Positions 3,001-57,926 are shown, counted from the stretch's first letter. The stretch is 64,000 nucleotides of DNA from Candidatus Omnitrophota bacterium (GCA_023248155.1 JAHFFE010000001.1:314603-378602), one strand, 5' to 3'. Program-made: numbers and translations. Notes: generated from the letters alone by a model not told the origin.

Positions 3001-3105
3001 AAAATCTGGCTGGCCGGTATTTTGGAACATTACGAAATTACCGCGTTAAGCCTTGATCAAGCGGCCCAGATCGTCGAATCACTTGCCACTCTTCAGTCCG
3101 CCTAA
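61..3105 (+). CDS. Large glycosyltransferase. The N-terminal ~500 aa is glycogen/starch-synthase-like (GT-B, GT5/GT4). The C-terminal ~500 aa is of unknown function. The frame is open to nt 1, so the true start may lie upstream of the window.
   Basis: GGMGPY glycine loop near the N-terminus typical of GlgA-type synthases. SKSESFGLAALEAMAGGVP (E-x7-E) motif of retaining GT-B enzymes. No in-frame stop between nt 1 and the GTG at 61. Confidence 0.6.
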   Translation: MLGLPNGEGYPLFIALMQKMALLTTPQYGNLTPLLGTQTEWGNDIPPSVVTADLSRIFSDLVRFRWDLKPKLYDWLVRLALSKELDSAAIQLAVDILRSAEVGEIVLVGLQSAYSSNTGGMGPYTLELTRGLAKMGINVTVIVPMFQENKTKILAGRYPRDTGRSVTVPFVGGEQAVLRLYEARSEEGVRVIYFENDRYFQKLAKRPNEPEGAGVYGSSGPFQLRVARVLSLGALLAIRELRIHPSVIQTNDDHSGLLAMYLRQGERDDAHPDTRGDDVDINIRFSNDPSLNQTRVVHVIHALTDGYNLEVNVPTAQWQDIVLHDLGRDWHLRDLDSLNHPAWSSGTEKTISPLHAAIVHADEVLTVSGGFYKDSLTQPGRFHGFTSVLQWKAEQGAYHFVPNGFDTIGLQRHYFPELPQTFLEMGVEAGRRWWAWHRLFYNFDGQGIPVVNRGLGLVSLRKRALQEAFNFPQDGPGVDAFLYSTLARVEEVKGHHLLTAPIWSVNHPEEISYYQGDHHGYKEKPFMFEGHKNEPVSDENQKKLTAYARRRGLESLSALEVALILMPNLQVLIAGPADLSANNLNGEIARDLQAIQQRFAADEPSRRHFAFYPRGVYKGRDAAYNLIYTGSTVFGMPSKSESFGLAALEAMAGGVPTLQSNRGGLRDMAVHLQRIQSDFETYHPISWLMHLSHYYDAYYGDRDLWDEFRYWSVAERDFRGQPRGYRNVYRTMWQRVLHGGTIPDAHGEWDVELPVFEMSAAINRSISARKSHSADELKAAGFSVQDANNALVVAIRDSVRPDFLHTVIDRFLPTLARIPDPKLQSDLLNRINTAIDSADIAGNSDAKGRLIWAKTNYWKAVGQAGAEESIAEAPKQTRAVLAEFSPSAISRRQIHIFDPINADLGLLVSAIQKDPVVIIAENETQERAIHQSGFLGMTVNQELYPDLPAAREAALVLVRDNLEFSGFSPFYYTAEQRASWKIWLAGILEHYEITALSLDQAAQIVESLATLQSA

Positions 3106-3152
3106 TTGTTCGAGCGCCGCACAGGGGTGTTGCTCCCGCACCGTTCGTCTCA

Positions 3153-3312
3153 GGCGTCTTCGGGTCCTGCCGCTCGGGGACACTCTCCGCCGTCCGTGCT
3201 CGCTTCGCTGCGCGCGTGGCGGCGAAGGCCTCTCCCGCCCGCGTCACCCGAAGACGCCTTAGCTATCAGTCGGAAGAGGCAGTTCGGGATATGGGGCAAG
3301 TGGACCTTGGCG
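3153..3312 (+). repeat. Intergenic repeat copy A. A ~106-nt hairpin (3153-3258) is followed by a conserved 27-nt block GGGATATGGGGCAAGTGGACCTTGGCG (3286-3312). A second copy lies at 57649-57797.
   Basis: 82 nt are identical between copies (3166-3245 vs 57659-57738). The closing stem is GGCGTCTTCGGGT/ACCCGAAGACGCC here versus CGCTTCGGGT/ACCCGAAGCG in copy B; the flanking stem positions differ but stay complementary. ORF-track ORFs inside it on both strands give the same spurious peptide. Confidence 0.7.
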
Positions 3313-3348
3313 TAGACGGCAAACGCCCTCATTTGTTACAATAAAAGG

Positions 3349-4344
3349 ATGGATCGTTTGACGCGCCAACGGGTTAAGGAAATTTTACAGCGGATGAGCC
3401 GCGCCCGCCTGATGGTCATCGGAGATTTGATCCTCGACGAATTTATCTGGGGAAAAGTCGATCGGATCTCGCCCGAGGCGCCCGTTCCGGTGGTTCGCGT
3501 TGAGCGCGAATCGTTGATGCCCGGCGGCGCGGCCAATGTCGCCAGCAATGTGCAAACGCTCGGCGGCACCGCCTGCCTCATCGGCCTTGTCGGCCAGGAC
3601 GACGGCGGCCGGCGCTTGAAAACGGAACTGACCGCGCTGGGCATTCCCACCGATTCCATCGTCACCGATCCCGATCGTCCGACCATTTCCAAAACGCGCG
3701 TCGTGGCCCATCATCAGCAAGTAGTGCGCATTGACCGCGAACAAGATGAAAAAGTCTCCGGCGCTGCATTACAAGCCATCCTCGAACAGATCCGTGAGCG
3801 GATCATGCAGGTCGATGGAATCATTATTGAAGATTACGGCAAGGGACTCATTCATCCGCAGCTGCTCAAGCCGGTCGTCGCGTTGGCCAAAAAACACAAA
3901 AAAATCATCACCGTCGACCCGAAAGAAGAGCACATCGCCTATTACCGCGGCGTGACGGCGCTCACCCCGAACCGCAGCGAAGCGGCGGCGGCTTCCGGAT
4001 GTCCGATTACCGATGACGTCAGTTTGAATCGTGCGGCCGGCATTCTGCTGAAGAAACTCAAGCCGGAACTTTTATTGGTGACGCTCAGCGAAGACGGCAT
4101 GGCTCTCTTTTTTGGAAACGGCAAGAAACCGGTGAGAATCCCAACGGTGGCGCGCGAAGTATTTGATGTGTCGGGTGCCGGCGACACCGTGATTGCCGCG
4201 TTTACGCTGGCACGCGCGGCGGGCGCTTCATTTTTGGAAGCGGCGCAATTAGCCAACGCGGCGGCCGGCGTGGTGGTTGGAAAAGTGGGAACGGCGACCT
4301 GTTCGCCGAAAGAACTGGAAGCGCGGATTTTTGGGAAAAGATAG
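3349..4344 (+). CDS. hldA: D-glycero-beta-D-manno-heptose-7-phosphate kinase (PfkB-family kinase domain of HldE/RfaE; kinase only, 331 aa)
   Basis: N-terminus LMVIGDLILDEFIWGKV...PGGAANVA and C-terminal DVSGAGDTVIAAF are typical of RfaE domain I. No adenylyltransferase domain follows. Confidence 0.8.
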   Translation: MDRLTRQRVKEILQRMSRARLMVIGDLILDEFIWGKVDRISPEAPVPVVRVERESLMPGGAANVASNVQTLGGTACLIGLVGQDDGGRRLKTELTALGIPTDSIVTDPDRPTISKTRVVAHHQQVVRIDREQDEKVSGAALQAILEQIRERIMQVDGIIIEDYGKGLIHPQLLKPVVALAKKHKKIITVDPKEEHIAYYRGVTALTPNRSEAAAASGCPITDDVSLNRAAGILLKKLKPELLLVTLSEDGMALFFGNGKKPVRIPTVAREVFDVSGAGDTVIAAFTLARAAGASFLEAAQLANAAAGVVVGKVGTATCSPKELEARIFGKR

Positions 4345-4368
4345 AACCATCATTACAAAACTGAGTGG

Positions 4369-4430
4369 TCATCCTGAGAGGGTAGTTGCTCAGGATCCTG
4401 AAAGATTCCGAGCAGGTGCGATCTCGGAAT
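4369..4430 (+). repeat. Tandem double-hairpin element copy 1. Hairpin 1 is ATCCTGAG-N10-CTCAGGAT (4371-4396); hairpin 2 is ATTCCGAG-N10-CTCGGAAT (4405-4430).
   Basis: Both stems are perfect 8-bp inverted repeats. A 27/30 identical copy of hairpin 1 lies at 22663-22690, followed by a different 8-bp-stem hairpin at the same spacing. Confidence 0.55.
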
Positions 4431-4444
4431 GACAGTCGGAGCGT

Positions 4445-7781: not shown

Positions 7782-8012
7782 ATGAAAGCCGTGAATATCC
7801 GAGAACTCACGCACCACTTTTCCAGCTATCTTAGGGTTGTAAAGCGGGGTGGACGGATCGTAGTGATGGATCGAAGTTCGCCGGTGGCGGATATCGTTCC
7901 GCATAATGAAAATGTCCAAAAACCGGCATGGAAACGGCCCATTCAGAAAATCCGCGTAAAAGGGGAAACGCTTTCTCAAACAACCGTGCGACTCAGGGCT
8001 GAAGAAAGGTGA
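7782..8012 (+). CDS. Type II antitoxin, Phd/YefM-like (76 aa)
   Basis: Small protein immediately upstream of, and overlapping by 4 nt, a PIN-domain gene. N-terminal KAVNIRELTHHFSSYLRVVKRGGRIVV resembles Phd/YefM. Confidence 0.65.
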   Translation: MKAVNIRELTHHFSSYLRVVKRGGRIVVMDRSSPVADIVPHNENVQKPAWKRPIQKIRVKGETLSQTTVRLRAEER

Positions 8013-8425
8013 GGGCGTTTATTGATACTTCATCGCTTTTCAAAAAATATGTAGAGGAAAGCGGATCGGAAGAGATGGATAAAATGCTGGATAAAATTTC
8101 CGAAATCACGGTTTCGCCGACTGCTTGGGTTGAATTTAATTCGGTGGCTTCCCGATCCCTGCGCGAAAAAAGAATGACATCGCAAAATTTTTCGCAGTTG
8201 TTATCAGAGGCGAAAAGGGATTTTCAATCTTATTCCAAGGTGATTTGGAGCGAGACGTTGGAAACCATCGCAGCCGAGTTGACTCATCGTTGTTCTCTTT
8301 CCACGCTGGATGCGATTCAACTTGCGTCAGGGCTTCTTTCGAAGTCGGATCTTTTTGTGACATCAGATCAAAGATTGTTTAGCGAGGCGCGAAAAACCAT
8401 TAAAGCAGTGCGTTTTATCGGATGA
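8009..8425 (+). CDS. vapC: PIN-domain ribonuclease toxin (VapC-like, 138 aa)
   Basis: FIDTSSL N-terminus, LDAIQLASGL and FVTSDQRL acidic-residue motifs of PIN domains. Confidence 0.75.
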   Translation: MRAFIDTSSLFKKYVEESGSEEMDKMLDKISEITVSPTAWVEFNSVASRSLREKRMTSQNFSQLLSEAKRDFQSYSKVIWSETLETIAAELTHRCSLSTLDAIQLASGLLSKSDLFVTSDQRLFSEARKTIKAVRFIG

Positions 8426-22525: not shown

Positions 22526-22637
22526 TCATTTCAAGAGGACTACAACTAGAAAACCAAATCCCTTTCAGGGATTTTATTTTCCAGCGATTCTTTAGCGTTC
22601 AATAAAAGATAAACATATGTCATTGCGAAAGCAGGCT

Positions 22638-22721
22638 GTCATCCTGAGATAACAACGGCATGTCATCCTGAGAGTGTACTTGCTCAGGATCTAAAGATGC
22701 TGAACAGAAAATTTTCAGCAT
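22638..22721 (+). repeat. Double-hairpin element copy 2. A half-site GTCATCCTGAGAT (22638-22650) precedes hairpin 1 ATCCTGAG-N10-CTCAGGAT (22665-22690) and hairpin 2 ATGCTGAA-N9-TTCAGCAT (22697-22721).
   Basis: Hairpin 1 is 27/30 identical to 4367-4396. The 3' arm of hairpin 2 contains the ATG (22720) of giant gene 1. Confidence 0.55.
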
Positions 22722-25700
22722 GACAAAAAATAAATCTATGAGAATAAAAAAATACAATCAAGTTTCCATCGCAACCTTTCTGCTAATCAGCCTGGTCGGG
22801 ACATCCTCCGTTCCGGCCGTCTCTCTTCCTATATATACGTTGCGCCCGCTTGCTTCCGCGCAAAATAAATCCGGTGCCGAAGAACTAACCAATGCCCTTA
22901 AGCGTCAAAATGATTCTAATGCCAATCAACCGCTTACCAACCAGGCCGTTTTAGACAAAGCGCAAGCTGGCCCATTGCTCAGCGAAACCAAAGAGTTGGC
23001 TGACGCCGCTGCGCGTGCCGCACTTGGCATTACTGCTGGCCAGGAGGAGAAGATTGAGCAATTTACTCGCGACAGAATTTTGTTGCGCTTGAACACCGGA
23101 AGGGAAATACCAACAGTTCCATACAAAACCGGGTTTTTGGCCGGTTTAGCCCAGGCCATTGCCGACCCAGGGCTTTCCGGTACCGCTGAGAGTTATTTAG
23201 TTCAGGAACTTCCACCAGGCCTTCGCGATGTGGTTCAGACAACGGCTGATCTAATTGGCAGAAATCGATTTACAAAGATGGACATGAAAGTGGCTCAAAC
23301 CGACACAGGGTCTCCGTTGACTGGTATTGCCGGCGAGACGATCATGGAAATTCTTTACAATGCGTTTTCACGGGGTTTTGGGGTAGGCCTCCCTCTGAGT
23401 GATAAAGGATATACGGCAATAGTCGTCAGCGGTACTCCCGGTTCTGATCTTTCGGTAGTATCCATTCCTGAGATTGGTCCCGATTTTCAAGACAGCCAGT
23501 TTGCCCGTTCATTAGCCAATCATGTTGTTGATCAACAGCCTACCGTTTTGGGAGTTGACCGGAGAGCAAAATACACTCTTTATGAAATAGGAACCGGCAA
23601 CACGGACTATGCGCTTCCAAAATATCTAGCGGGTGAGCAAGGTAGGAGAGGCTCATACCTTTTGCTTCAAATCGATCTGCCCATAAGTTTCGCCGGCGCG
23701 GAAGAGCGTGGGTGGTTTTCTCGCAATAAAGGTTTTTTTGGCATGGTTGCTTTGTCAGTGGCAGTCCTTGGATTTGCTGCTTACCAAATTGCCGGAGACC
23801 AGATTGCGGAACAATATTATCTTTATCGCCATCCTCCTACAGTAAAACAAGCGGCTGTTATGCCGTCCGGGTTGCATGTTCAGCTGCCTCCTGAAATGGC
23901 GGGTAAATATGCGGTGGCTTATCTGGAAACCGACCGTTTTTATCCGCAGGTCATAACACAGGTATCTGCTGACGGGACCGCTGCGTTTCATGTGGAAGTC
24001 CGGCCCCCTAACCGGCCCGGATGGATTGCCGCTCGCGGACGAGTGGTTGCGGTGGTTAATTCCAAGCAAGCGGCGAATGTAGCTTTCAGGGAAATAAAAG
24101 ACCCGTCTGCTTTGAATCGATTAAATCCGGCCGCTGTTTTAACAATTGATTCCGACGGGAAGGTGACTTCTGATAAGGATCCGTTGGGTAATCAAAACGC
24201 CGGGCAGGAAGAATCTGTTGCAACGGCCATTGATCAGCTTGTTTCGAACAGTTTTGGAGCAACCAATGTAATAACTACAGAAATGCTTTTCAATAATTCA
24301 AACGGAATGGTGACTTTCCAGAATTCAAGTTATTACGGGGATCAGACCTATGAATTAACGCTCCGTCCGTGGGTGAGTCTTTTAAGTGATCATCCAGAAG
24401 AGAACGTTGATTTCAGAGTTCGTGTCAGTCTGCAGAGAAAAGATTTCGCAGTTTTATCAGCTGCGGAACGAAAAGCCATGGCCAGCTACGAATTCAGAGT
24501 CAAAGGGTTTCCTTCTGCGGAGTTTCAATCCGGGTGGACAGCGCTTTCGCCTAATCCGCAACCCAAGAACTACTATGATCCTGGCGCGGGTCCTAACACC
24601 CCTCCAGGGTTTGTCATTCCTGCGGGTGCTGATATGGAAACGTGGATACCCATTCCGATAGTCTCGGACGCTTTCAGAGGAGAAAAGCTTGCCGAGTTGC
24701 AGCGACGCGACCCGGCTCAGAGAAGCATAACCATCCAGGTTAGGAAAGCCGGACAGGAAGAGACGGTTGTCGTTGGGCGGATACTTACTTTGCAGGCCGC
24801 GATGGAAAAACTGCGTACATTGTTAGCCGGTTCCAACCATAAACAAATCGTTTTTAATCCAGAGCAAAACGAAAGCTTAATAGAACGTACTGAAACCGCA
24901 TCAGTAAAAGATGTTTCGGATTTAACCGGGCCTGTTCGCCTCATTGGTCAATACTCGCCCAACTTTGATAATGGTCAGGGGGAAGGGCTGGTCGATATCC
25001 GTACCCGAAACGGCATCATTTATGTGAATCCTTTTCCATACAAAGCGGAAGAACTTTCTCTGAAAGTTACGCAGCTGTTTCGAAGAGGCGATATTTTGGT
25101 GGACCAAACTACGGGTGTCCGTCATTTTGAAGTTGCTGACAATCAAGGAAACGCTGTTGATGCTGTTCCTCTGGTTTCAATTATCAACGGATACACAGCT
25201 GATTCTAAGGTGACGCGTGTTCCTGCCGCGGATCTTCGGCTTCGCTACCGCGTGATTCGTGCCGTTGCCGCCGGGGCGGAAGAAAATGTTGAGGAATTGG
25301 CCGCTCGGTTAGGGGATGAGCCAATTAAGGTCGTGGAAACACTTCCTTCCTCTGCTCTTTTGACTGCCGATGCGAAAGCAGATGTGGTCCGTTACTTGCG
25401 GGGAGAGATTGAAGAGGCTGAGCTTCTTGGCATCTTGGACCGCTTAGGAATAGTGGAGATTCAGTCAGGCGGCAATTTCATGAACCAGGCGGAGCTCATT
25501 CGCGCCGCGGCGAAAGAGCGGGCCTTGGTGGAGAGAGCGATTGCGGAAGACCGTTTGGGAGAGTTTATTCCTATTGCCGATGGGAAATCCGCGGCTGTGG
25601 TGGAAGTGGATGTCGTCTCGAGTCTGCCAAAGGTTTATCTGCAGAATGGTTTGTCTTCGCCGGTTGCCGCGCCCGATGACATAGCGATCATTCCTTTAAG

Positions 25701-31343: not shown

Positions 31344-31453
31344 TTTCACAATACGCTGGTTTTGTCTTCCAAGCCAGCGGCTCTTTTTTACCCTGCATTT
31401 TTACTTATTTTGGATAACTTAAACAAAGCAAACATTCGGGAGGAATACAAGTA

Positions 31454-34400
31454 ATGCGATTTGATTTCCTGCGCTCAATCTCGGTGGTAGTCCTGTCTGT
31501 TTTTTCTCTGTCGTCTGTTTCTCCTGCATTTGCTCTGCGTGCCGCCGGCTTAGAGGAAAACGCGGAAAAGGGTACGGTCACCAGGAGGCTTCTTGAGGGC
31601 AACCGCGGAAATTTTTCGGGCGGTCTGCAGAAAAACTCCACCTCCGGTCTGGAAGAGATCCGGATCCTGCTGGTGGCGGTTTCTGACGAAGCTCTCGCTA
31701 AAAAAATGGGAGAGATGGCACAGGCCTGGCGTTCGGAGTTGGACGTAAGAATTGTTCACACTGCAGACGAGGCTCAGGTTTATCTGAAAGCGCAGCAAAA
31801 TCCAAGGCCGGATGCGGTCATCTGGGAATTATCCACAATGGGAACCGAGACGCTCATAGATCCAAGCCAGCTTTCTTTCAATGTACCCGTGGCTCTGGTA
31901 GGCGAGGGGGCGATGGGCGTGGTTGGAGAATGGATCGCATTGTTCAACAACCGTCCCGTTCCTGCCCCTTTTCAGGAGACTCTTCAACAAAAAGCCAAGA
32001 AGGATGGGTTTTCGAGAACTGCTCGCTTGTTATTTGGTGATGATCTAGTAAACAGGCGGCCCCTGCGGCTCCTGAGGGGAACTGAAAATTATGAGTTATC
32101 TGCTTTCACGCATAATCTGGACATACTGAATAGGGATTTCAGGAGCCGTTCCGCTGGGCTGGAGGAGGCGTGGGATCGCGACACCGCGGACAGTTGGACG
32201 ATTTTAAGTGGTACAGTTTCCACCCAACTTATCCAGCAGTTGCTTCAACAAACTCCCGCGCCGGCAATCACCGATCTGGGCAATTTTTACTGGACCAAGG
32301 GAACGCTTTCACAATTGACTCCCGGCATGGTGAATAACATTTTGAATGTTGCACCGTCGCGTCACCTATTGGCAATCTCGAATGGACAGGTTGCCTTGAT
32401 TCGTCAGGGAGAATTGGAATCGGCCGACCAGGACGGTGCGAAAGATGCAACCAATTGGTATGGGAAATTGGCGACACGCGCCGAGACAGTGCTGACTCCT
32501 CAGCATTTACAATCCGCCGGCTTGGAGGAAACGCCCGCGCAAGTCATCGCCAAGCAAAAAGCGATGGCAGTCATTGCAGTTCCCAGTGTTCAAGTTGCTG
32601 CCGGTATCGGTGCAGTGGTTGCGTACAAGGGAATAATTCCCGAAATTACATTTCGGGGGAATGAAGCCGATGTTTTGCAGGCGATCAATGCACTTTTCGG
32701 TCTGTCGTCGAGCAAGCGAATGCCGGTAGCGGCCGGATCTGTATTGACGGCCGATCAGGTGGAGAAAGCTGTACGGGCGGGTGCTAAGATTATCGTCAGC
32801 CCCGGCTTGATTGATGAAGTTATTCTCAAGGCCCAGGAATTGGGAGTTTTGGTAATCCCAGGCGTGGCATCGATGTCTGAGGCAAAAACAGCGGTCGAGG
32901 TTTACGGCCTTTCACTGTTGAAATTTTTCCCATTCTCTTTTGTCGATCAGGCTGATTTTATCAAATCAATCAAAGCGCCATTGCCGCCAAATCTTCAGGC
33001 CGTGGTGGACGCTAAGGTAACATGGGGAGATTCCGGAGAAGTCGCCACATTTACAAAAATTCTTGAATTTGTCCTGAGTAATCCGACAGCATCAAAGCAA
33101 TTCCAGCTTCCCAAGAAAAAAGGATTGGAAGCGCTTCATCAATTGGGCGTGAATCCGGCAGTTGCCAATGCGCAGTTTATTCCAACCGGTGGTATTACGC
33201 CGGAGATGATCCCGCAGTTGATAGGGAAGGAAAAGATCGTCGCGGTAGGTTTATCCATCGGCGGAGATAATCCGGCGGTTCTTGCGAAAGCCGATGCTAT
33301 TGCGAAAGCGGTTGCGCAGATTGCTGGTGCCGAGGAGGGAGTGGTTGCCGTTGTTGCATCGGAAGATAATTTTCAGGCAGTCGCTGGTTATGTGCGTAAG
33401 TATGCGATTGGGCAGGGCAGAAAAGCCCCTCAAATGGTTCACCAGCATTTTGATGATGCTCGGCAGAATGCCAGTCGCGGTTTTGTGACTGCCATCGTGG
33501 CGATTTTTCCAAGCGCGGATGCTGATCAAATTGCGTGGATCGAAAGAACCAAAGAACTTGCTCCTAACGTTCCAATCGCCGTGATTTATTCCGGCAATGG
33601 AAACGAGGTTCGCCGCGTCTCAACTAAAGCACTGAGCAGTAGAGAGTTGAGCCAAGATGCGGTTGGTGAAATGGTTTTCTCCCTGCTTCCCACCGCTGGT
33701 GCGGAAGAATCAACCGTGCTTCTTCCAACCCCGCAAAACTCGTTTCCTGCAAGTCGAGGAGCTGTCTCTCCGGACGGGGATTCACTATTAGCGTTGAAAG
33801 AGACACCGGAGGTTCGCTGGGCAACGATGGTGGGCCGTACGGAAGGGTTTTCTTCGGGGCGATCTTCCGACGGTTTGGTTCACGCGCAGGGATTGGTGGA
33901 TCGTCTGGAGATCAAAGCCGGATTTACAACTGGCATTGAAAATGAACTGAATATTGTCGAATCGTATCGAGCTGGGCAATATACGCTGGCGATTCTCGGA
34001 GCACCCGTTGCTACAAGCGCTAGGCCGATTATCCAAGGTTTTAAGTATGAGGTTACAGGTGCTCCTGGGGTTAATCGCGTACTGACACTTTCCGTTGATC
34101 AAAACGCTGTTTCCCCTAAGGTAATAAATAATCTTGTCGCTCAAAATTTACCATCAGGCAGCCCAAAACCGTTGACGGTTGTTATCGAAGCCGCCGCTGG
34201 TCTCGAAGAGACGGTTTACACGGGCATTGACCAGGTTGTAGCGGCGATTACTCAACCTGAAGGCGAAGACAGCATCCGGGCTCTTGTCTACTCTCTTCCG
34301 GATGGAACAGAACAACGCGCGGTTCTTGCCCCAGGTGAATGGACTCCTGCGCAGGCGGTTCCCGGTGCTTTTCAAGCAATGGAACTCCGTCCTGTTTCCG

Positions 34401-37225: not shown

Positions 37226-37241
37226 CAGAACGGAGAGAAAA

Positions 37242-40200
37242 ATGCGGTTTAATTATCTGCGAACAATTTCGGCAATCGTTCTGACTGCTTTTTCTCTGTC
37301 AGCGGCTACGCCTATGCCTGCGTGGGCTTTGCGCGCCACTGGCGCCGAGGAAAGCGCCACCCAGCCTATTTTGGCTCGCGCGCTTCAATCCGGCAATAAA
37401 GGTAATTTTGTCCGCGGAGTTGATTCCCGCTTAGTTGCCGCTGGTCAGGAAGAGAATGTTCATGTGCTGGGTATTGAGGGCAAGCCGACCAATTCCCGCG
37501 AGGGTCTGACCGCTTATGACAACCAGCCCGATTTGCAAACGGCGGTCCGTGCTTACGTGCAGGCCTCGTCCGTTCTGGTGACGATTACGTCCATTCAGCA
37601 GAGAGATGGAACAACGGATGAGTTTCTTGGAAAACCGTTTGTTTTTGAAACCTATCGTTTTGCGCCAGGAAAAGATCCTCTCGACCCTAAAGATGGCAAT
37701 TGGGGCGGCATGACCTGGCAACTGCGCCGTTTTTCTATTCGATTAAACGGACTTAGTCGGGTGGGCAGCCCTCTTCCGAATATGTCACACACGCTGAATC
37801 GGTTTCGCTTAATTGAAACATCGCCGGGACAACTTGTCATCGAACCAGTTTTTGACGCGGCGCTTGCGCCGCGATTGAAGACCCTTTTGCCCGATGTGGC
37901 TTTAGAGACGATTCAGGGTTGGTTATCAAAGGGCCAATACGCGCAGATCCTTTCTTTAGCTGAGAGTGGTGCTAACGAGAGAACAGATACTCGGAATCTG
38001 ACGCAAATCCGGAATATGCTCAATGCCATGCTGGATGTTTCTTCCGCCGCTGGGGCCGAAGAGAGATTTGAGGTTTCTGTCCGCAGTACGAGTGATGGCA
38101 CTGAAAACTTCGATCGAATCGAGCTTATGTCCAGGAGCGAAGAAACAGATCGGTTAGCGAATGCACTGGGCTTGATTAAAGGGCGTTCCTTGCTTTTGAT
38201 ACGCCAAAAGGCGCCGACTACCGCCACGGAGGCATTTCCCTTTTTTGCCGTGTCCGATGGGGCAAAGGTGATTCTTTTGTCCGGGGCTGGATCCGATGGC
38301 GCGCAGCTTTGGCGTTCCTATGCGGAAGAAAAAATAAAACGAAGCATAGTTTTTTCATCTATGCGGTCATTTCGTACTTTAGAAAGCCCCGTTAATGTTC
38401 AAATTAGTTCTCCCCTGAGTATTCCTCAATATGATCTATTGCAGGTAACGATCTCTGCTGGGCAGGAAGAAAAGTGGTCGAATCCGTTTATGGGTCCAAA
38501 CCGCGTCAATTTAATGTCTGGCGATTACGCGGCAAAATGGATTTCGCAAGGCGTCTTGGCTGCGAAAATTGCTTCTGTCGCGGTTCATCCGAAAGAGGGT
38601 TCTCCCGTTACGCTTTCGCTGAATCAAGTCAACACAGCTCGAAAATTGCTTCGCCAATTTAAACGCGACGATTGGGTTAATGTGTCCTGGGCAGAAAACG
38701 GTTCCGCTCGGGGAGAAATTCGTGTTGATGTCCGGCCCGTTGATGTTTTGTCCGATGGGATGCCTGTTCCGCCCGTTGGCGAATTTACCAGCGTAATCGG
38801 TTATCTGACCATTACGACGACCCCTTACACCGCGGCCAGGGCCATAGCAGCATCCGCGGCAGAGATTGCTTCCGTTGAAACTCTAATTTCTTTTACGAGT
38901 GACCCCGGCTATTGGAGCGGTTATGGCCACGCAAGCACCGATTGGAACGCCGTGGCTGAACAGCATGCCAAGGTCTATGTGGCTGCCGGCCTGGCTTCAA
39001 TAAATCCGGCTATTTTATCGGCCAAAGTTCAGTTTCTGGCGAATCTCGAACCGCTATTTCTCGCTGGGCAGGAGGAAACTTATTTCTATTCTCCTGCTGG
39101 GGCTACGCTCAAGTCCAACGATCAGACGCAGCCCGATCTTCCTATCGCTGTTGGGGATGTCTTCCGAATTTATCTGGCTCAGAAGCGAGTCAAACCCGAT
39201 GATCGCAGCGACGAGACTTATCTGCTTCGGCTCATGGAGAACGGGCAGCTTGCTCTAATGGAACGGCCGCCAGCCGGCAGAACATTCAGTGAAATGACCG
39301 AAAACGAAGACCAATTTGTTCAGTTGGCCATCGGCTGGGATCAGGCACATCAGCGGGGTGAGCGGGTGACCATAAATACCCTGTATGGACCCGTGAGCAT
39401 TTCACTGAACGCGGGAAAAACCCAACTTGCCTTCGAGCATGCTTTCCGAGAGGAAAATATAGAGGAACGCATTGGCTCTAAAGTAAATATTTATCCTAGC
39501 TCTCTCTACGACCTCGGCTTCAATCGCCTTATTCCAGCTGTTGGGTTGCCCGCCGTCAGGGATTTTAAAGCCGCTTATCGCCGTTTCTATAAGAATCAGC
39601 AAAACGGAGACGCCGCCGCGCGGTTAGAAGCGGCCCGCGTAGCTTTAGTGGTGCTGGCCAATACGGAAGATCAGACACGGTTTCGTGCGGCCTATGCCTC
39701 TTTTGAAAAGGCTCTTTTGAATGAGCTGCAAACGGCTCCTTACACTCTTGTCAAGGGCGTTCCGGGTTTCGATAAACCGATTTTTGCAATAGATTATGTG
39801 AGTCACACCCAGCGTCAGCTCGTCGATGAACTCACCGCGATTCGATCCCTTTCAAATGCCGCCGGGGCGGAGGAAACTTACCGCAACTACGATTCCAGCG
39901 GTTGGCATGTCACATTACCCGCAGGGCAAGCCGTCGCGCAGCCGGTTACGGTGGCTACTAATCCGGGAGATATTCTGCTTCTGCAGTGGGCGCCCCAAAT
40001 TCCGAATCAGGAAAATAGGCTGTTCGCGCTGGTTCGGGTTTCTGATGATGGAAAAGAAATTTCCGTCTTGGATCAGCTCGATTCGCAATTCAGATTGAGT
40101 AGTTTTTATCGGGCGGGTGTTCAGGGTATGACTGGAGCAGAAGTGCCTGGCGATGTTATCCGGAGCGTGGAGTGGGGACCGGCCGCTTCGGAGGCGAGAA

Positions 40201-47677: not shown

Positions 47678-47686
47678 TTTTTTAAA

Positions 47687-48090
47687 GAGCCGGCCCGGGC
47701 ATTCAACTTGGTTCGAGAGCCGCAACCTCTGCGTTCCCGCTTCCGTCAGGCAAGGCGTTCGCAGGCCGTTTGTCAGCCCCTGCGAGTCTGACTGCACTAC
47801 GGTCAACCCTTCGCTCTCTCCGCCATTGGCGGAGAACCATGCCCGCTCAGGGTTTCCAGTGCCTGCTCAGCCTTATCCTGCACGGAATCGCTCACGCAAG
47901 CATTGGTAAGAGGCGGTTCGGGAGATGGGTCAAGTGAACCCTGTTGAGGCCGTTTCAGCAGGGTTTTAGGTAAGGCCGAAACCGGAGCGAGAAATCGGTA
48001 GTCGATTTCGAGCGCGTTCACGGACCCGCTCCCGGACTGACTCGAAAATAATGTCTTGCTTGGTTGAGTGCCCGGGCCGGCTCTTCCATG
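47687..48090. repeat. ~400-bp GC-rich non-coding element bounded by 23-bp terminal inverted repeats (MITE-like or a large structured RNA)
   Basis: AAGAGCCGGCCCGGGCA(T)TCAAC at 47687-47709 is the reverse complement of 48068-48090 with one mismatch. No convincing ORF inside; only antisense low-complexity ORFs. Confidence 0.5.
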
Positions 48091-48106
48091 ATAAACTAGG
48101 GGAACG

Positions 48107-56306: not shown

Positions 56307-57598
56307 TGCGCGCGACCGAGTCGTATTTTCCCACCTTAAGAGAAGTTCCCGCGGAAGCGGAAGTCATCAGCCACCGGCTGATGCTGCGCGCCGGGCTGGT
56401 GCGCAAATTGTCGGCAGGAACTTACTCGTATCTTCCGATGGGTATGCGTGTGCTGCTGAAAGTCACGCAAATTATTCGCGAAGAAATGGCCAACGCCGGC
56501 GCGTTGGAAGTTTTAATGCCGGCGCTTCAGCCGGCCGATGTCTGGAAAAAATCGGGCCGCTACGACAAGATGGGCCCGGAGATGATCCGGTTCCGCGACC
56601 GGCACGGCAAGGAAACAGTGTTGGGCCCCACACACGAAGAAATTATTACCACGCTGATTTCCGGCGAGCTGCGTTCCTACCGTGATCTGCCCAAAACCTT
56701 TTTCCAGATTCAGACCAAATTCCGTGATGAAGCGCGGCCGCGGTTCGGTGTGATCCGTTCCAGCGAATTCATCATGAAAGACGCCTACAGTTTTCACCGC
56801 GACGAGAAAAGCCTCGATGAAATGTACAAAAAAATGTACGCGGCTTATACGCGCATCTTTCAGCGCTGCGGCATGAACGCGATTCCCGTCGAGGCCGATA
56901 CCGGCGTCATGGGCGGCGACAATTCGCACGAGTTCATGATTCCGGCTTCCTGCGGCGAAGATTTCGTGGTTCGCTGCAAGGCCTGTTCATACGCCGCTTC
57001 CATGGATAAAGCTGCCAAGAAAATGACACCGGCCGGAGCCGCTGAGCCGGTTGTTCCGAAGAATGGCGACGCCTGTCCGCAATGCGCGCAGCCGCTTGAA
57101 ATCCTGCCGGGCATCGAGGTGGGCCATATTTTCAAGCTGGGCACCAAATATTCCACATCGCTCGAAGCGATGTACCTCAACGAGGACGGCAAACAAAAAG
57201 TCTTTATCATGGGCTGCTACGGCATTGGCGTCACGCGGATTATTCCGTCGATCATCGAGGCCAATAACGATGAGGCCGGCATCCGCTGGCCGGTTTCGGT
57301 GGCTCCGTATACCGTGGTGGTGATCCCGGTCAATCCGGATGACGCTGTCAAACAGGCGGCCGAGTCGTTGTATCACGATTTGCAAAAAGCTGGCATTGAA
57401 GTGCTGCTGGATGACCGAGACCTGTCGGGCGGCGTCAAAATGAAAGATGCCGATTTGATCGGGTTCCCGCTGCGCGTGGTGGTCAGCAATAAAACACTGC
57501 AACAGTCGGCCGTTGAGCTGAAAGTCCGCACCGAACCGCAGTTCTCTCTGGTCCCGCTTTCCGAAATCGTTTCCCGCCTCAAATCCATCCAAAACTAA
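56306..57598 (+). CDS. proS: Prolyl-tRNA synthetase, short form lacking the bacterial INS editing domain, with a Cys4 insertion
   Basis: Class II motifs FRDE...RPRFG. CKAC...CPQC zinc-ribbon-like insert. The start is the ATG overlapping the ispG TAA. 431 aa. Confidence 0.85.
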   Translation: MRATESYFPTLREVPAEAEVISHRLMLRAGLVRKLSAGTYSYLPMGMRVLLKVTQIIREEMANAGALEVLMPALQPADVWKKSGRYDKMGPEMIRFRDRHGKETVLGPTHEEIITTLISGELRSYRDLPKTFFQIQTKFRDEARPRFGVIRSSEFIMKDAYSFHRDEKSLDEMYKKMYAAYTRIFQRCGMNAIPVEADTGVMGGDNSHEFMIPASCGEDFVVRCKACSYAASMDKAAKKMTPAGAAEPVVPKNGDACPQCAQPLEILPGIEVGHIFKLGTKYSTSLEAMYLNEDGKQKVFIMGCYGIGVTRIIPSIIEANNDEAGIRWPVSVAPYTVVVIPVNPDDAVKQAAESLYHDLQKAGIEVLLDDRDLSGGVKMKDADLIGFPLRVVVSNKTLQQSAVELKVRTEPQFSLVPLSEIVSRLKSIQN

Positions 57599-57648
57599 AT
57601 CAGCCCTAGGAGTTTTTCGAGTCAGCCCGGGATACCCTAAATCGTCTT

Positions 57649-57797
57649 CGCTTCGGGTCCTGCCGCTCGGGGACACTCTCCGCCGTCCGTGCTCGCTTCG
57701 CTGCGCGCGTGGCGGCGAAGGCCTCTCCCGCCCGCGTCACCCGAAGCGCCTGCGTGGGTAGAGGCGGAACGGGATATGGGGCAAGTGGACCTTGGCG
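57649..57797 (+). repeat. Intergenic repeat copy B (hairpin 57649-57748 plus the conserved 27-nt block 57771-57797)
   Basis: See copy A at 3153-3312. Confidence 0.7.
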
Positions 57798-57813
57798 GAG
57801 GCCGACGCGCCGC

Positions 57814-57843
57814 TTGACAGCGGCAGTCGCTCCGACGGATAAT
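57814..57843 (+). promoter_or_regulatory. Candidate sigma-70 promoter of the rimP-nusA-infB operon
   Basis: TTGACA-18 nt-GATAAT immediately downstream of repeat copy B. Confidence 0.5.
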
Positions 57844-57893
57844 AATAGGGTAATGCCGTAATAGGTTCTTCCCCGGAGTCCTCAGGGGATGCG

Positions 57894-57926
57894 AGTGGGA
57901 TACCAACGATTGGTCCCACTTTTTTG
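57894..57926 (+). terminator. Terminator-like hairpin plus T-tract in the rimP leader (candidate attenuator)
   Basis: Stem AGTGGG...CCCACT enclosing CCAA-CGA-TTGG, followed by TTTTTTGTT. It lies between the candidate promoter and the rimP start. Confidence 0.45.

Follow-up and report, generated by a model that had tools for sequence, protein, structure and literature searches.

Positions 3153-3312 of a 64,000-nt stretch of DNA from a Candidatus Omnitrophota bacterium (hereafter the window; G+C content 54.8%) hold an intergenic hairpin that recurs almost unchanged more than 54 kb away, which raises the question of what kind of genetic element it is. An earlier note on this DNA had taken it for a duplicated two-copy element with compensatory base changes in its closing stem and had proposed three identities: a small RNA gene, a REP-like repeat, or a transcriptional terminator or insulator.

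The repetition itself is secure. A repeat search of the 64-kb window finds 96 nt that are 100% identical at 3158-3253 (copy A) and 57651-57746 (copy B), a length of exact match within 64 kb that excludes chance, and the identity of 3166-3245 with 57659-57738 from which the question arose is confirmed as the inner 80-nt part of this repeat. Overall, A and B are 91% identical over 158 nt (BLAST). The identical stretch is part of a hairpin of ~100 nt, whose closing stems read exactly as first quoted (GGCGTCTTCGGGT / ACCCGAAGACGCC in copy A, CGCTTCGGGT / ACCCGAAGCG in copy B). The second conserved block, GGGATATGGGGCAAGTGGACCTTGGCG, is also present in both copies (3286-3312 and 57771-57797), beginning 32 nt (A) or 24 nt (B) past the identical core. 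The gene context described in the earlier note, after one gene and before the next operon, is likewise correct. Copy A lies between the gene of a 1014-aa glycosyltransferase (stop codon at 3103-3105) and a PfkB-family kinase gene (3349); its first base directly follows the glycosyltransferase TAA, and its right end coincides with the predicted promoter of the kinase gene. Copy B lies between proS (stop at 57598) and rimP (57959), the latter in rimP-nusA-infB, and is located between the proS stop codon and the conserved rimP promoter. The features of all copies are collected in Table 1.

Table 1. Features of the repeat copies in the window and of the neighboring rimP promoter
Feature	Position	Strand	Basis or remark
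Copy A, short form	3106..3322	+	left module L1, core hairpin and M block
Left module L1 of copy A (TTGTTCGAGCGCCGCA...)	3106..3152	+	aligns with the left ends of C (z = 4.8) and of the L014 copy
Core hairpin, copy A	3153..3258	+	closing stem GGCGTCTTCGGGT/ACCCGAAGACGCC; 3158-3253 identical to B; model R1, 112.9 bits
M block, copy A (the second conserved block of the earlier note)	3269..3315	+	copy of the family terminal-repeat motif
Copy C, long form	47685..48085	+	repeat search; without A/B-type core
Outer terminal inverted repeat of C, left arm (AAGAGCCGGCCCGGGCATTCAAC)	47685..47707	+	23 nt, 96% complementary to 48063-48085; family motif inside
M block, copy C	47903..47949	+	predicted pairing with 48015-48050
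M' of copy C (GTTCACGGACCCGCTCCCGGACTGACTCG)	48015..48050	-	inverted copy of the M/terminal motif; 30 nt 100% identical to the L014 and L016 ends
Outer terminal inverted repeat of C, right arm	48063..48085	-	inverted-repeat search and family motif
Copy B, short form	57612..57806	+	terminal motif, core hairpin and M block
Terminal-repeat motif, left end of B (TTTTCGAGTCAGCCCGGGA...)	57614..57640	+	motif match at 57619-57633
Core hairpin, copy B	57649..57748	+	57651-57746 identical to A; model R1, 109.7 bits
M block, copy B	57754..57800	+	87% identical to the M block of A
rimP promoter (TTGACA-18-GATAAT) and leader, not element	57814..57925	+	promoter with 11/12 matches

The two-copy view does not stand, because the window holds a third, longer copy (C) and the element is a mosaic repeat family. 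The second block recurs in diverged form at 47903-47949, and the pattern CGGGAKATGGGKCAAGTGRACC has three matches in the window against none expected. Copy C sits in the 429-nt gap (47678-48106) between the gene of an 817-aa protein and a ROK-family gene; all three window copies are intergenic. Within its outer inverted repeats, C is ordered as an L1 module, a diverged middle hairpin domain, an M block, and a right domain with an inverted M', and it folds at -205.7 kcal/mol (z = -7.48). Pairwise alignments relate the left ends of A and C, identify the second block of C as an inverted repeat of its own right end, and match the left end of B to the reverse complement of the right end of C at 18/19 nt (z = 7.5). 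What joins these parts is a 15-nt motif, GAGKCRGYYCGGGMR, which occurs six times in the window (0.56 expected) and only within the three copies: on the plus strand at 3276, 47687, 47910, and 57619, which are left or middle positions, and on the minus strand at 48029 and 48069, which are right ends. As the match at 3276-3290 lies in the M block of copy A, this common motif makes the second block an internal copy of the terminal repeat.

The copies, 195-401 nt long, are assembled from few parts, and L1, core, M block, and right domain are combined differently in A, B, C, and two copies in related genomes (L014 and L017). The sequence of M' in C is the element terminus in L014. Terminal inverted repeats are found in C (23 nt, 96%) and in L014 (~17 nt by eye, ACGAGTCAATCAGGG versus ACGAGTCAGTCCGGG). 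In A and B the two motif copies are direct, so that terminal inverted repeats are absent; having no inverted right terminus, A and B are not intact mobile units.

Window and relatives together yield six copies and fragments. Neither nhmmer nor a covariance model finds further copies in ~167 kb (the window and related loci); a 21-bit match in L006 was rejected as false, as it lies inside a coding gene. In public genome contigs, the second block (CGGGANATGGGNCAAGTGNACC) has one chance match, beside a start codon in a Phycisphaeraceae MAG, and in metagenome contigs it matches the same Phycisphaeraceae-type sequence and one coding region. Three patterns have no match in viral contigs, and the terminal motif has four matches of 17 nt there, presumed chance. 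A BLAST search of plasmid and phage collections with the full-length element returns only G+C-rich chance matches of 33-38 nt.

Relatives were found via the proteins that flank the element. The closest named relatives of the prolyl-tRNA synthetase (ProRS) are Candidatus Omnitrophica MAGs at ~65-67% identity, and a query of concatenated ends of flanking genes reaches a 94%-identical protein on a 381-kb contig of a relative. Four independent relatives (L006-8, L009, L017, and L018; ~68-70% ProRS identity) keep the order ispG-proS-rimP-nusA-infB. Their proS-rimP gaps measure 68-97 nt in L006, L009, L017, and L018 against 360 nt in the window, and contain no element; the TTGACA...GATAAT promoter and the leader hairpin are retained. 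Given these short, element-free gaps, copy B represents ~200 nt inserted between the stop codon of proS and the rimP promoter.

Three closer relatives (L005, L014, and L015; ~88-90% nucleotide identity in proS) each carry a family member directly after proS. In L014 (~90% nucleotide identity in proS and ispG), this is a full-length copy of 302 nt in the orientation opposite to the window, made up of the left module, a 106-nt core, the M block, and the right domain, and followed by a convergent gcvT-like gene instead of rimP. Copy A is 87% identical to positions 1-200 of this copy over 206 aligned positions (nhmmer E = 2.4e-60). The junction between proS and the element is the same in L005 as in L014, and the B-type left terminal motif adjoins the proS stop codon in both; L015 has a C-type fragment at the same position. 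At the locus of copy C, L016 has the right end of the element in reverse orientation (30/30 nt). Contigs L005, L015, and L016 end 19-49 nt into the element, the usual assembly signature of a multi-copy repeat.

Gene order around proS is unstable among the relatives at ~90% identity (L015 914-2170; L014 2933-3673), and in L015 ispG and proS are separated by a gene for an Rce1-like CAAX protease, which the window lacks. The last codons of proS differ as well, encoding ...RLKSIQN* in the window (57560-57598), ...RLITASS* in L014 (2585-2608), and ...HLKKLLDSR* in L006 (11270-11302), with a third, different tail in L015 (3455-3483). Relatives without the element have the rimP -35 box within the end of proS. 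From these differing tails and the position of the -35 box, the C-terminus of ProRS has apparently been rewritten by each insertion.

The hairpin is also found without its carrier. L017 has a diverged core only, of ~118 nt (model R1, 57.8 bits, E ~ 3e-11), reversed in orientation and situated between pheA and an aminotransferase gene. In L006 and L018, pheA and the aminotransferase gene share an ATGA overlap; the ~118 nt are extra in L017, where they are flanked by GAG/GAG, the sole candidate for a target-site duplication, and provide both a TGA stop codon for pheA and an AGGAG Shine-Dalgarno sequence for the next gene. L017 against L006 and L018 is a filled/empty-site pair for the hairpin unit itself.

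Identity is distributed unevenly along the element. A comparison of the window with L014 gives 73-79% identity at the four-fold degenerate sites of proS and ispG and ~75-78% for the left module and M block (by eye, from the nhmmer alignment); the cores of copy A and L014, which occupy non-orthologous loci, agree at 102/106 positions (~96%), and C 47905-48044 is 95.7% identical to the L014 right domain. Within the window, A and B share a core at 100%, an adjoining block at 87%, and left ends that are unrelated. Such a mosaic of identities is indicative of module exchange or gene conversion, combined with constraint on, or recent spread of, the two hairpin domains, although purifying selection for a host function would also give ~96% identity in the core and right domain.

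The element is probably one module of a composite, non-coding, non-autonomous repeat family, mobile or formerly mobile, in a narrow uncultured lineage that is itself probably Omnitrophota. Such a family would have two layers: an imperfect palindrome of ~100-118 nt, the core hairpin, able to exist and insert alone, and a carrier of ~300-400 nt bounded and studded by a motif of ~15-25 nt (GAGKCRGYYCGGGMR...), direct at the left and in the middle and inverted at the right end. A and B would be short forms (left end, core, and M block), and C a long form with a different middle. The copies are located in gaps just after stop codons, in either orientation, coincide with breaks of synteny and assembly, and differ at the same locus between closely related genomes. 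They would be mobilized in trans by an enzyme encoded elsewhere, for which a DDE transposase reading the terminal motif or a HUH/RAYT-like enzyme reading a DNA hairpin is a candidate. Modules may be swapped between copies by recombination or gene conversion, and such exchange would explain the 96-nt identical tract beside 87%-identical and unrelated sequence. Complementarity could be kept by a cis need for folded DNA in mobility or by hairpin-templated repair. With a same-strand gene upstream and no terminator between, the window copies are probably co-transcribed as 3'-UTR hairpins; any effect on the host, such as protection of mRNA 3' ends or the hybrid promoter at 3313-3342, would be a secondary by-product. 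The window proteins scanned against Pfam include no RAYT, transposase, recombinase, or invertase, the data examined contain no identified parent (autonomous) element, and no target-site duplication is visible at A, B, C, or L014.

Whether the fold is maintained bears on this reading and on its rivals. Copy A folds at -64.9 kcal/mol on the plus strand (z = -4.35) and at -74.7 kcal/mol on the minus strand (z = -5.87). The earlier note had argued from the compensatory closing stem that a folded nucleic acid is under selection. That stem offers little: the change comprises only two base pairs beside indels, and A and L014 both have GGCGT/ACGCC. Relative to A, the 5' arm in B is 4 nt shorter or re-duplicated, the 3' arm has a 1-nt deletion, and two pairs are extra (CG/CG); indels cut the closing stem of B to 10 bp. 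In A, B, and L014 alone, 39 of 44 pairs are invariant, one pair has changed on both sides (G-C to C-G in L014), and covariation is no different from shuffles (166/500). With L017 added, RNAalifold keeps 35 pairs across the four copies, four of which have changed on both sides and are still paired; 95.7% of the cells of this alignment are paired, values as high as those observed arise in 6/500 shuffles, and all slid controls yield 0. Maintenance of the fold thus survives in a form independent of the cited stem, with modest but real support from four sequences for conserved complementarity of the hairpin. The two-sided changes, taken with 96% identity of the hairpin against 73-79% at four-fold sites, suggest constraint on fold or mobility, on either strand.

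Which strand would be the functional one is answered inconsistently. The core folds better on the minus strand, the right domain on the plus strand, and the L017 hairpin equally on both, while the ratio of G.U to A.C mismatches is 3:2 in the core and 3:0 in the right-domain stem of C (plus strand), a mixed and non-significant outcome. Strand symmetry and variable orientation fit a palindrome acting at the DNA level at least as well as RNA; the compensatory changes fit a functional RNA equally well.

The last point is shared by an explanation in which the host keeps the element as a cis-acting RNA. Co-transcribed with the upstream gene, at its 3' end, the hairpin would block 3'-5' exonucleases or act as an insulator or terminator before the next promoter. 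The strong folds of the window copies, the compensatory pairs over four copies, and a core conserved at 96% against 73-79% at four-fold sites are all in keeping with it, as is the right-domain stem of C, with three G.U and no A.C on the plus strand. Placement agrees too: each of the three window copies directly follows a gene on its own strand and shortly precedes a promoter-like site or the start of an operon. Beyond the window this regularity fails: the hairpins of L014 and L017 are opposite in orientation to the upstream gene, and four relatives do without any element between proS and rimP. The core lacks a strand bias (three G.U versus two A.C) and folds better on the minus strand, the long hairpin is absent from copy C, and no U-tract follows the hairpin, although the genome has canonical terminators such as that of the rimP leader. 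A host-kept cis-acting RNA is an unlikely explanation of the family, if one with several observations on its side.

Much less probable is an inverton or another substrate of site-specific recombination, in which a segment bounded by inverted repeats would flip and alter expression of the downstream operon. Copy C, situated just before a gene start and bounded by inverted repeats of 23 nt that are separated by 355 nt, has the required architecture, and close relatives carry the element in opposite orientation at both the proS and copy-C loci; between B and L014, the proS-proximal terminal motif even keeps its orientation and the interior is reversed. A and B, however, lack an inverted partner at the distal end, the L016 junction lacks the outer repeat of C, and the gene past the element differs too in L014, which indicates more than a local flip. 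In addition, no promoter is found inside the elements and no invertase gene in the window.

A stand-alone small RNA gene present as two paralogues has still less in its favor. An identical core of 96 nt with diverged flanks resembles paralogous small RNAs, and the fold is stable. Against this, Rfam 15 at the gathering score gives no match in the whole window, and at E <= 10 the three copy loci return only noise of 14-16 bits. A scan of the copy loci finds no sigma-70-like promoter in or upstream of the element; promoter-like sites occur only outside the elements, at 3313-3342, adjoining the end of A, and at the rimP promoter (57814-57843). A terminator scan finds no U-tract after the hairpin, where copy A has CCTTAGCTATCAG and copy B CCTGCGTGGG. 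The element begins with the base next to the upstream stop codon, and the fixed orientation and locus expected of a small RNA gene are not seen among the relatives, where orientation, locus, and module content all vary. Among the three identities first proposed, the REP-like repeat is thus favored, by further copies in both orientations and at other loci and by insertions, over the small RNA and the terminator or insulator.

Both promoter-like sites deserve description in their own right. The rimP promoter is near-consensus, and the leader of ~70-90 nt behind it ends in a conserved hairpin, GTGGGA...TCCCACTTTTTT, followed by TTTTTT just before the rimP start; corresponding promoter and leader sequences lie at 11289-11365 in L006, ~11290-11385 in L009, and 11252-11345 in L017 and L018. 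This hairpin before rimP-nusA-infB looks like a leader terminator or attenuator, possibly involved in NusA autoregulation, and has no Rfam match. The kinase gene is preceded by one promoter-like site only (3313-3349), TAGACG-18-TACAAT with a TG extension, whose -35 hexamer belongs to sequence that A has in common with B (the element end). Its -10 ends 6 nt before the annotated ATG, which implies a leaderless kinase mRNA or a later start codon.

A coding role of the element was considered and rejected. The ORFs that run through it share no conserved frame, and an indel of 8 nt puts the M blocks of A and B in different frames. A short MGQV... peptide is not conserved past five residues, and six-frame translations of A and C used as protein queries have no match at E <= 10.

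Least probable is a role of the 15-25-nt motif (M block) as an operator bound by a nucleoid protein or transcription factor of the host, with the hairpin incidental. The over-representation of the motif and its nearness to promoters in A and B speak for such a role, but the motif adjoins the promoter in A, lies ~17 nt off in B and >100 nt from the next gene start in C, builds the element termini in inverted orientation, and is missing from the orthologous rimP promoter regions of relatives.

The reading as a mobile or formerly mobile repeat family finds parallels in several known systems. REPINs are reportedly inverted REP doublets that form hairpins of ~70-110 nt and are mobilized by a RAYT tyrosine transposase. 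The core described here is likewise an imperfect palindrome of ~100 nt over its whole length, situated between genes; compensatory changes keep it complementary, both orientations occur, and insertions are polymorphic, so that a long two-unit inverted hairpin with maintained complementarity is present. The differences are that no RAYT gene is seen in the 64-kb window and no GTAG-type tetranucleotide in the element, that the arms are not obviously two short REP palindromes, and that a larger element, which has terminal repeats of its own, often surrounds the hairpin.

ERIC/IRU sequences of Enterobacteriaceae are imperfect palindromes of 127 bp in transcribed intergenic regions. The present family shares their size class, hairpin potential, position after genes, and short and long variants arising via internal deletions and insertions; both are conserved well above the neutral level, yet differ in chromosomal location between related genomes. 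There is no sequence relationship, the phylum is another, and the carrier with its terminal motif is an addition of this family.

Correia elements of Neisseria are MITEs of 100-155 bp with 26-bp terminal inverted repeats. The copies described here are similarly short (below ~500 bp, as is typical of MITEs), non-coding, intergenic, and likely co-transcribed. Terminal inverted repeats occur in C and L014, the element end may give a -35-like hexamer (TAGACG at 3313), and presence/absence polymorphism is found for B (against four relatives) and for L017 (against L006 and L018). They differ in that no TA-type target-site duplication is seen, the terminal motif is repeated internally, and there is no known parent insertion sequence.

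Modular construction has its own precedents. BIMEs and pneumococcal BOX elements are mosaic repeats of a few modules, and varied combinations of modules are likewise seen across the five copies A, B, C, L014, and L017; these modules have no sequence relationship to those of BIMEs or BOX, and the copies are too few for a module grammar. Mycobacterial MIRUs are units of 40-100 bp within operons that overlap stop and start signals. The L017 copy resembles them, being placed between formerly overlapping genes to which it gives a TGA stop codon and AGGAG. The copies here are palindromic and not tandem, however, and those of the window lie between transcription units.

Integron attC sites are imperfect palindromes of 57-141 nt that follow the ORF of a cassette and are bounded by RYYYAAC ... 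GTTRRRY. An attC assignment was rejected: the core ends in GGCGTCTTCGGG ... CCCGAAGACGCC without R''/R' boxes, and the window contains no integrase gene. The attC-like sequences ATTCAAC/GTTGAGT are found only at the inner ends of the outer repeats of C and are not conserved in L014.

Membership in a named family cannot be claimed, because the sequences are unrelated, neither a RAYT nor a parent insertion sequence was found, and no target-site duplication is clear; a literature search found no description of such repeats in Omnitrophota. In its behavior, the family resembles REPINs, ERIC/IRU, Correia-type MITEs, BIME/BOX, and, in L017, MIRUs, and is best read as a genomic parasite of an ordinary type and not as a new RNA gene.

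The window contains other features of interest. A second, unrelated intergenic repeat is present in two copies (4350-4436 and 22620-22725), just upstream of the starts of a CMP-KDO synthetase-like gene and of the first giant-protein gene, respectively. Its unit reads GTCATCCTGAGAG(G/T)GTA(G/C)TTGCTCAGGATC, followed by a small second hairpin and ATGACA, and a part of it, GTCATCCTGAGA, is duplicated at 22640-22672. The giant-protein genes are six consecutive plus-strand genes at 22720-47677 (1101, 1683, 1923, 1604, 1038, and 817 aa). Short DNA motifs (GCCGGnnTGGAGGAAA and related) recur in them, the 5' ends of two of the genes resemble each other (31453-31525 versus 37241-37313, 73% identical), and L016 has homologues at 80-83% nucleotide identity; the 817-aa protein, the only one of the six scanned, has no Pfam match. 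At 8009-8425, the gene of a PIN-domain protein (138 aa) lies directly upstream of, and overlaps, a gene for a SIS- and CBS-domain (KpsF/GutQ-like) protein, and may be a remnant of a toxin-antitoxin system in a neighborhood of LPS-sugar genes.

For annotation, the result removes a false lead, since the element is neither a new sRNA nor a riboswitch. It also accounts for the assembly breaks that this lineage shows after proS and after the gene of the 817-aa protein. For a phylum that is known from metagenomes alone, it puts on record a modular palindromic repeat specific to one lineage. For the genes next to it, the element has consequences of its own, as it reshapes their ends (ProRS has three C-terminal tails among three close relatives) and parts genes that formerly overlapped (pheA and the aminotransferase gene in L017). 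That two hairpin domains are conserved well above the neutral level is a small puzzle. One tentative answer, which we hold to be improbable, is that the hairpins of ~100 nt and, in the right domain, ~150 nt are themselves selected, as folded DNA or RNA substrates of an undescribed hairpin-recognizing mobilization or recombination system in Omnitrophota (for instance RAYT-like or guide-RNA-bearing) or else as an invertible switch in front of operons. If so, identities of ~96% against 73-79%, compensatory pairing, and opposite orientations in sister genomes would all be explained.
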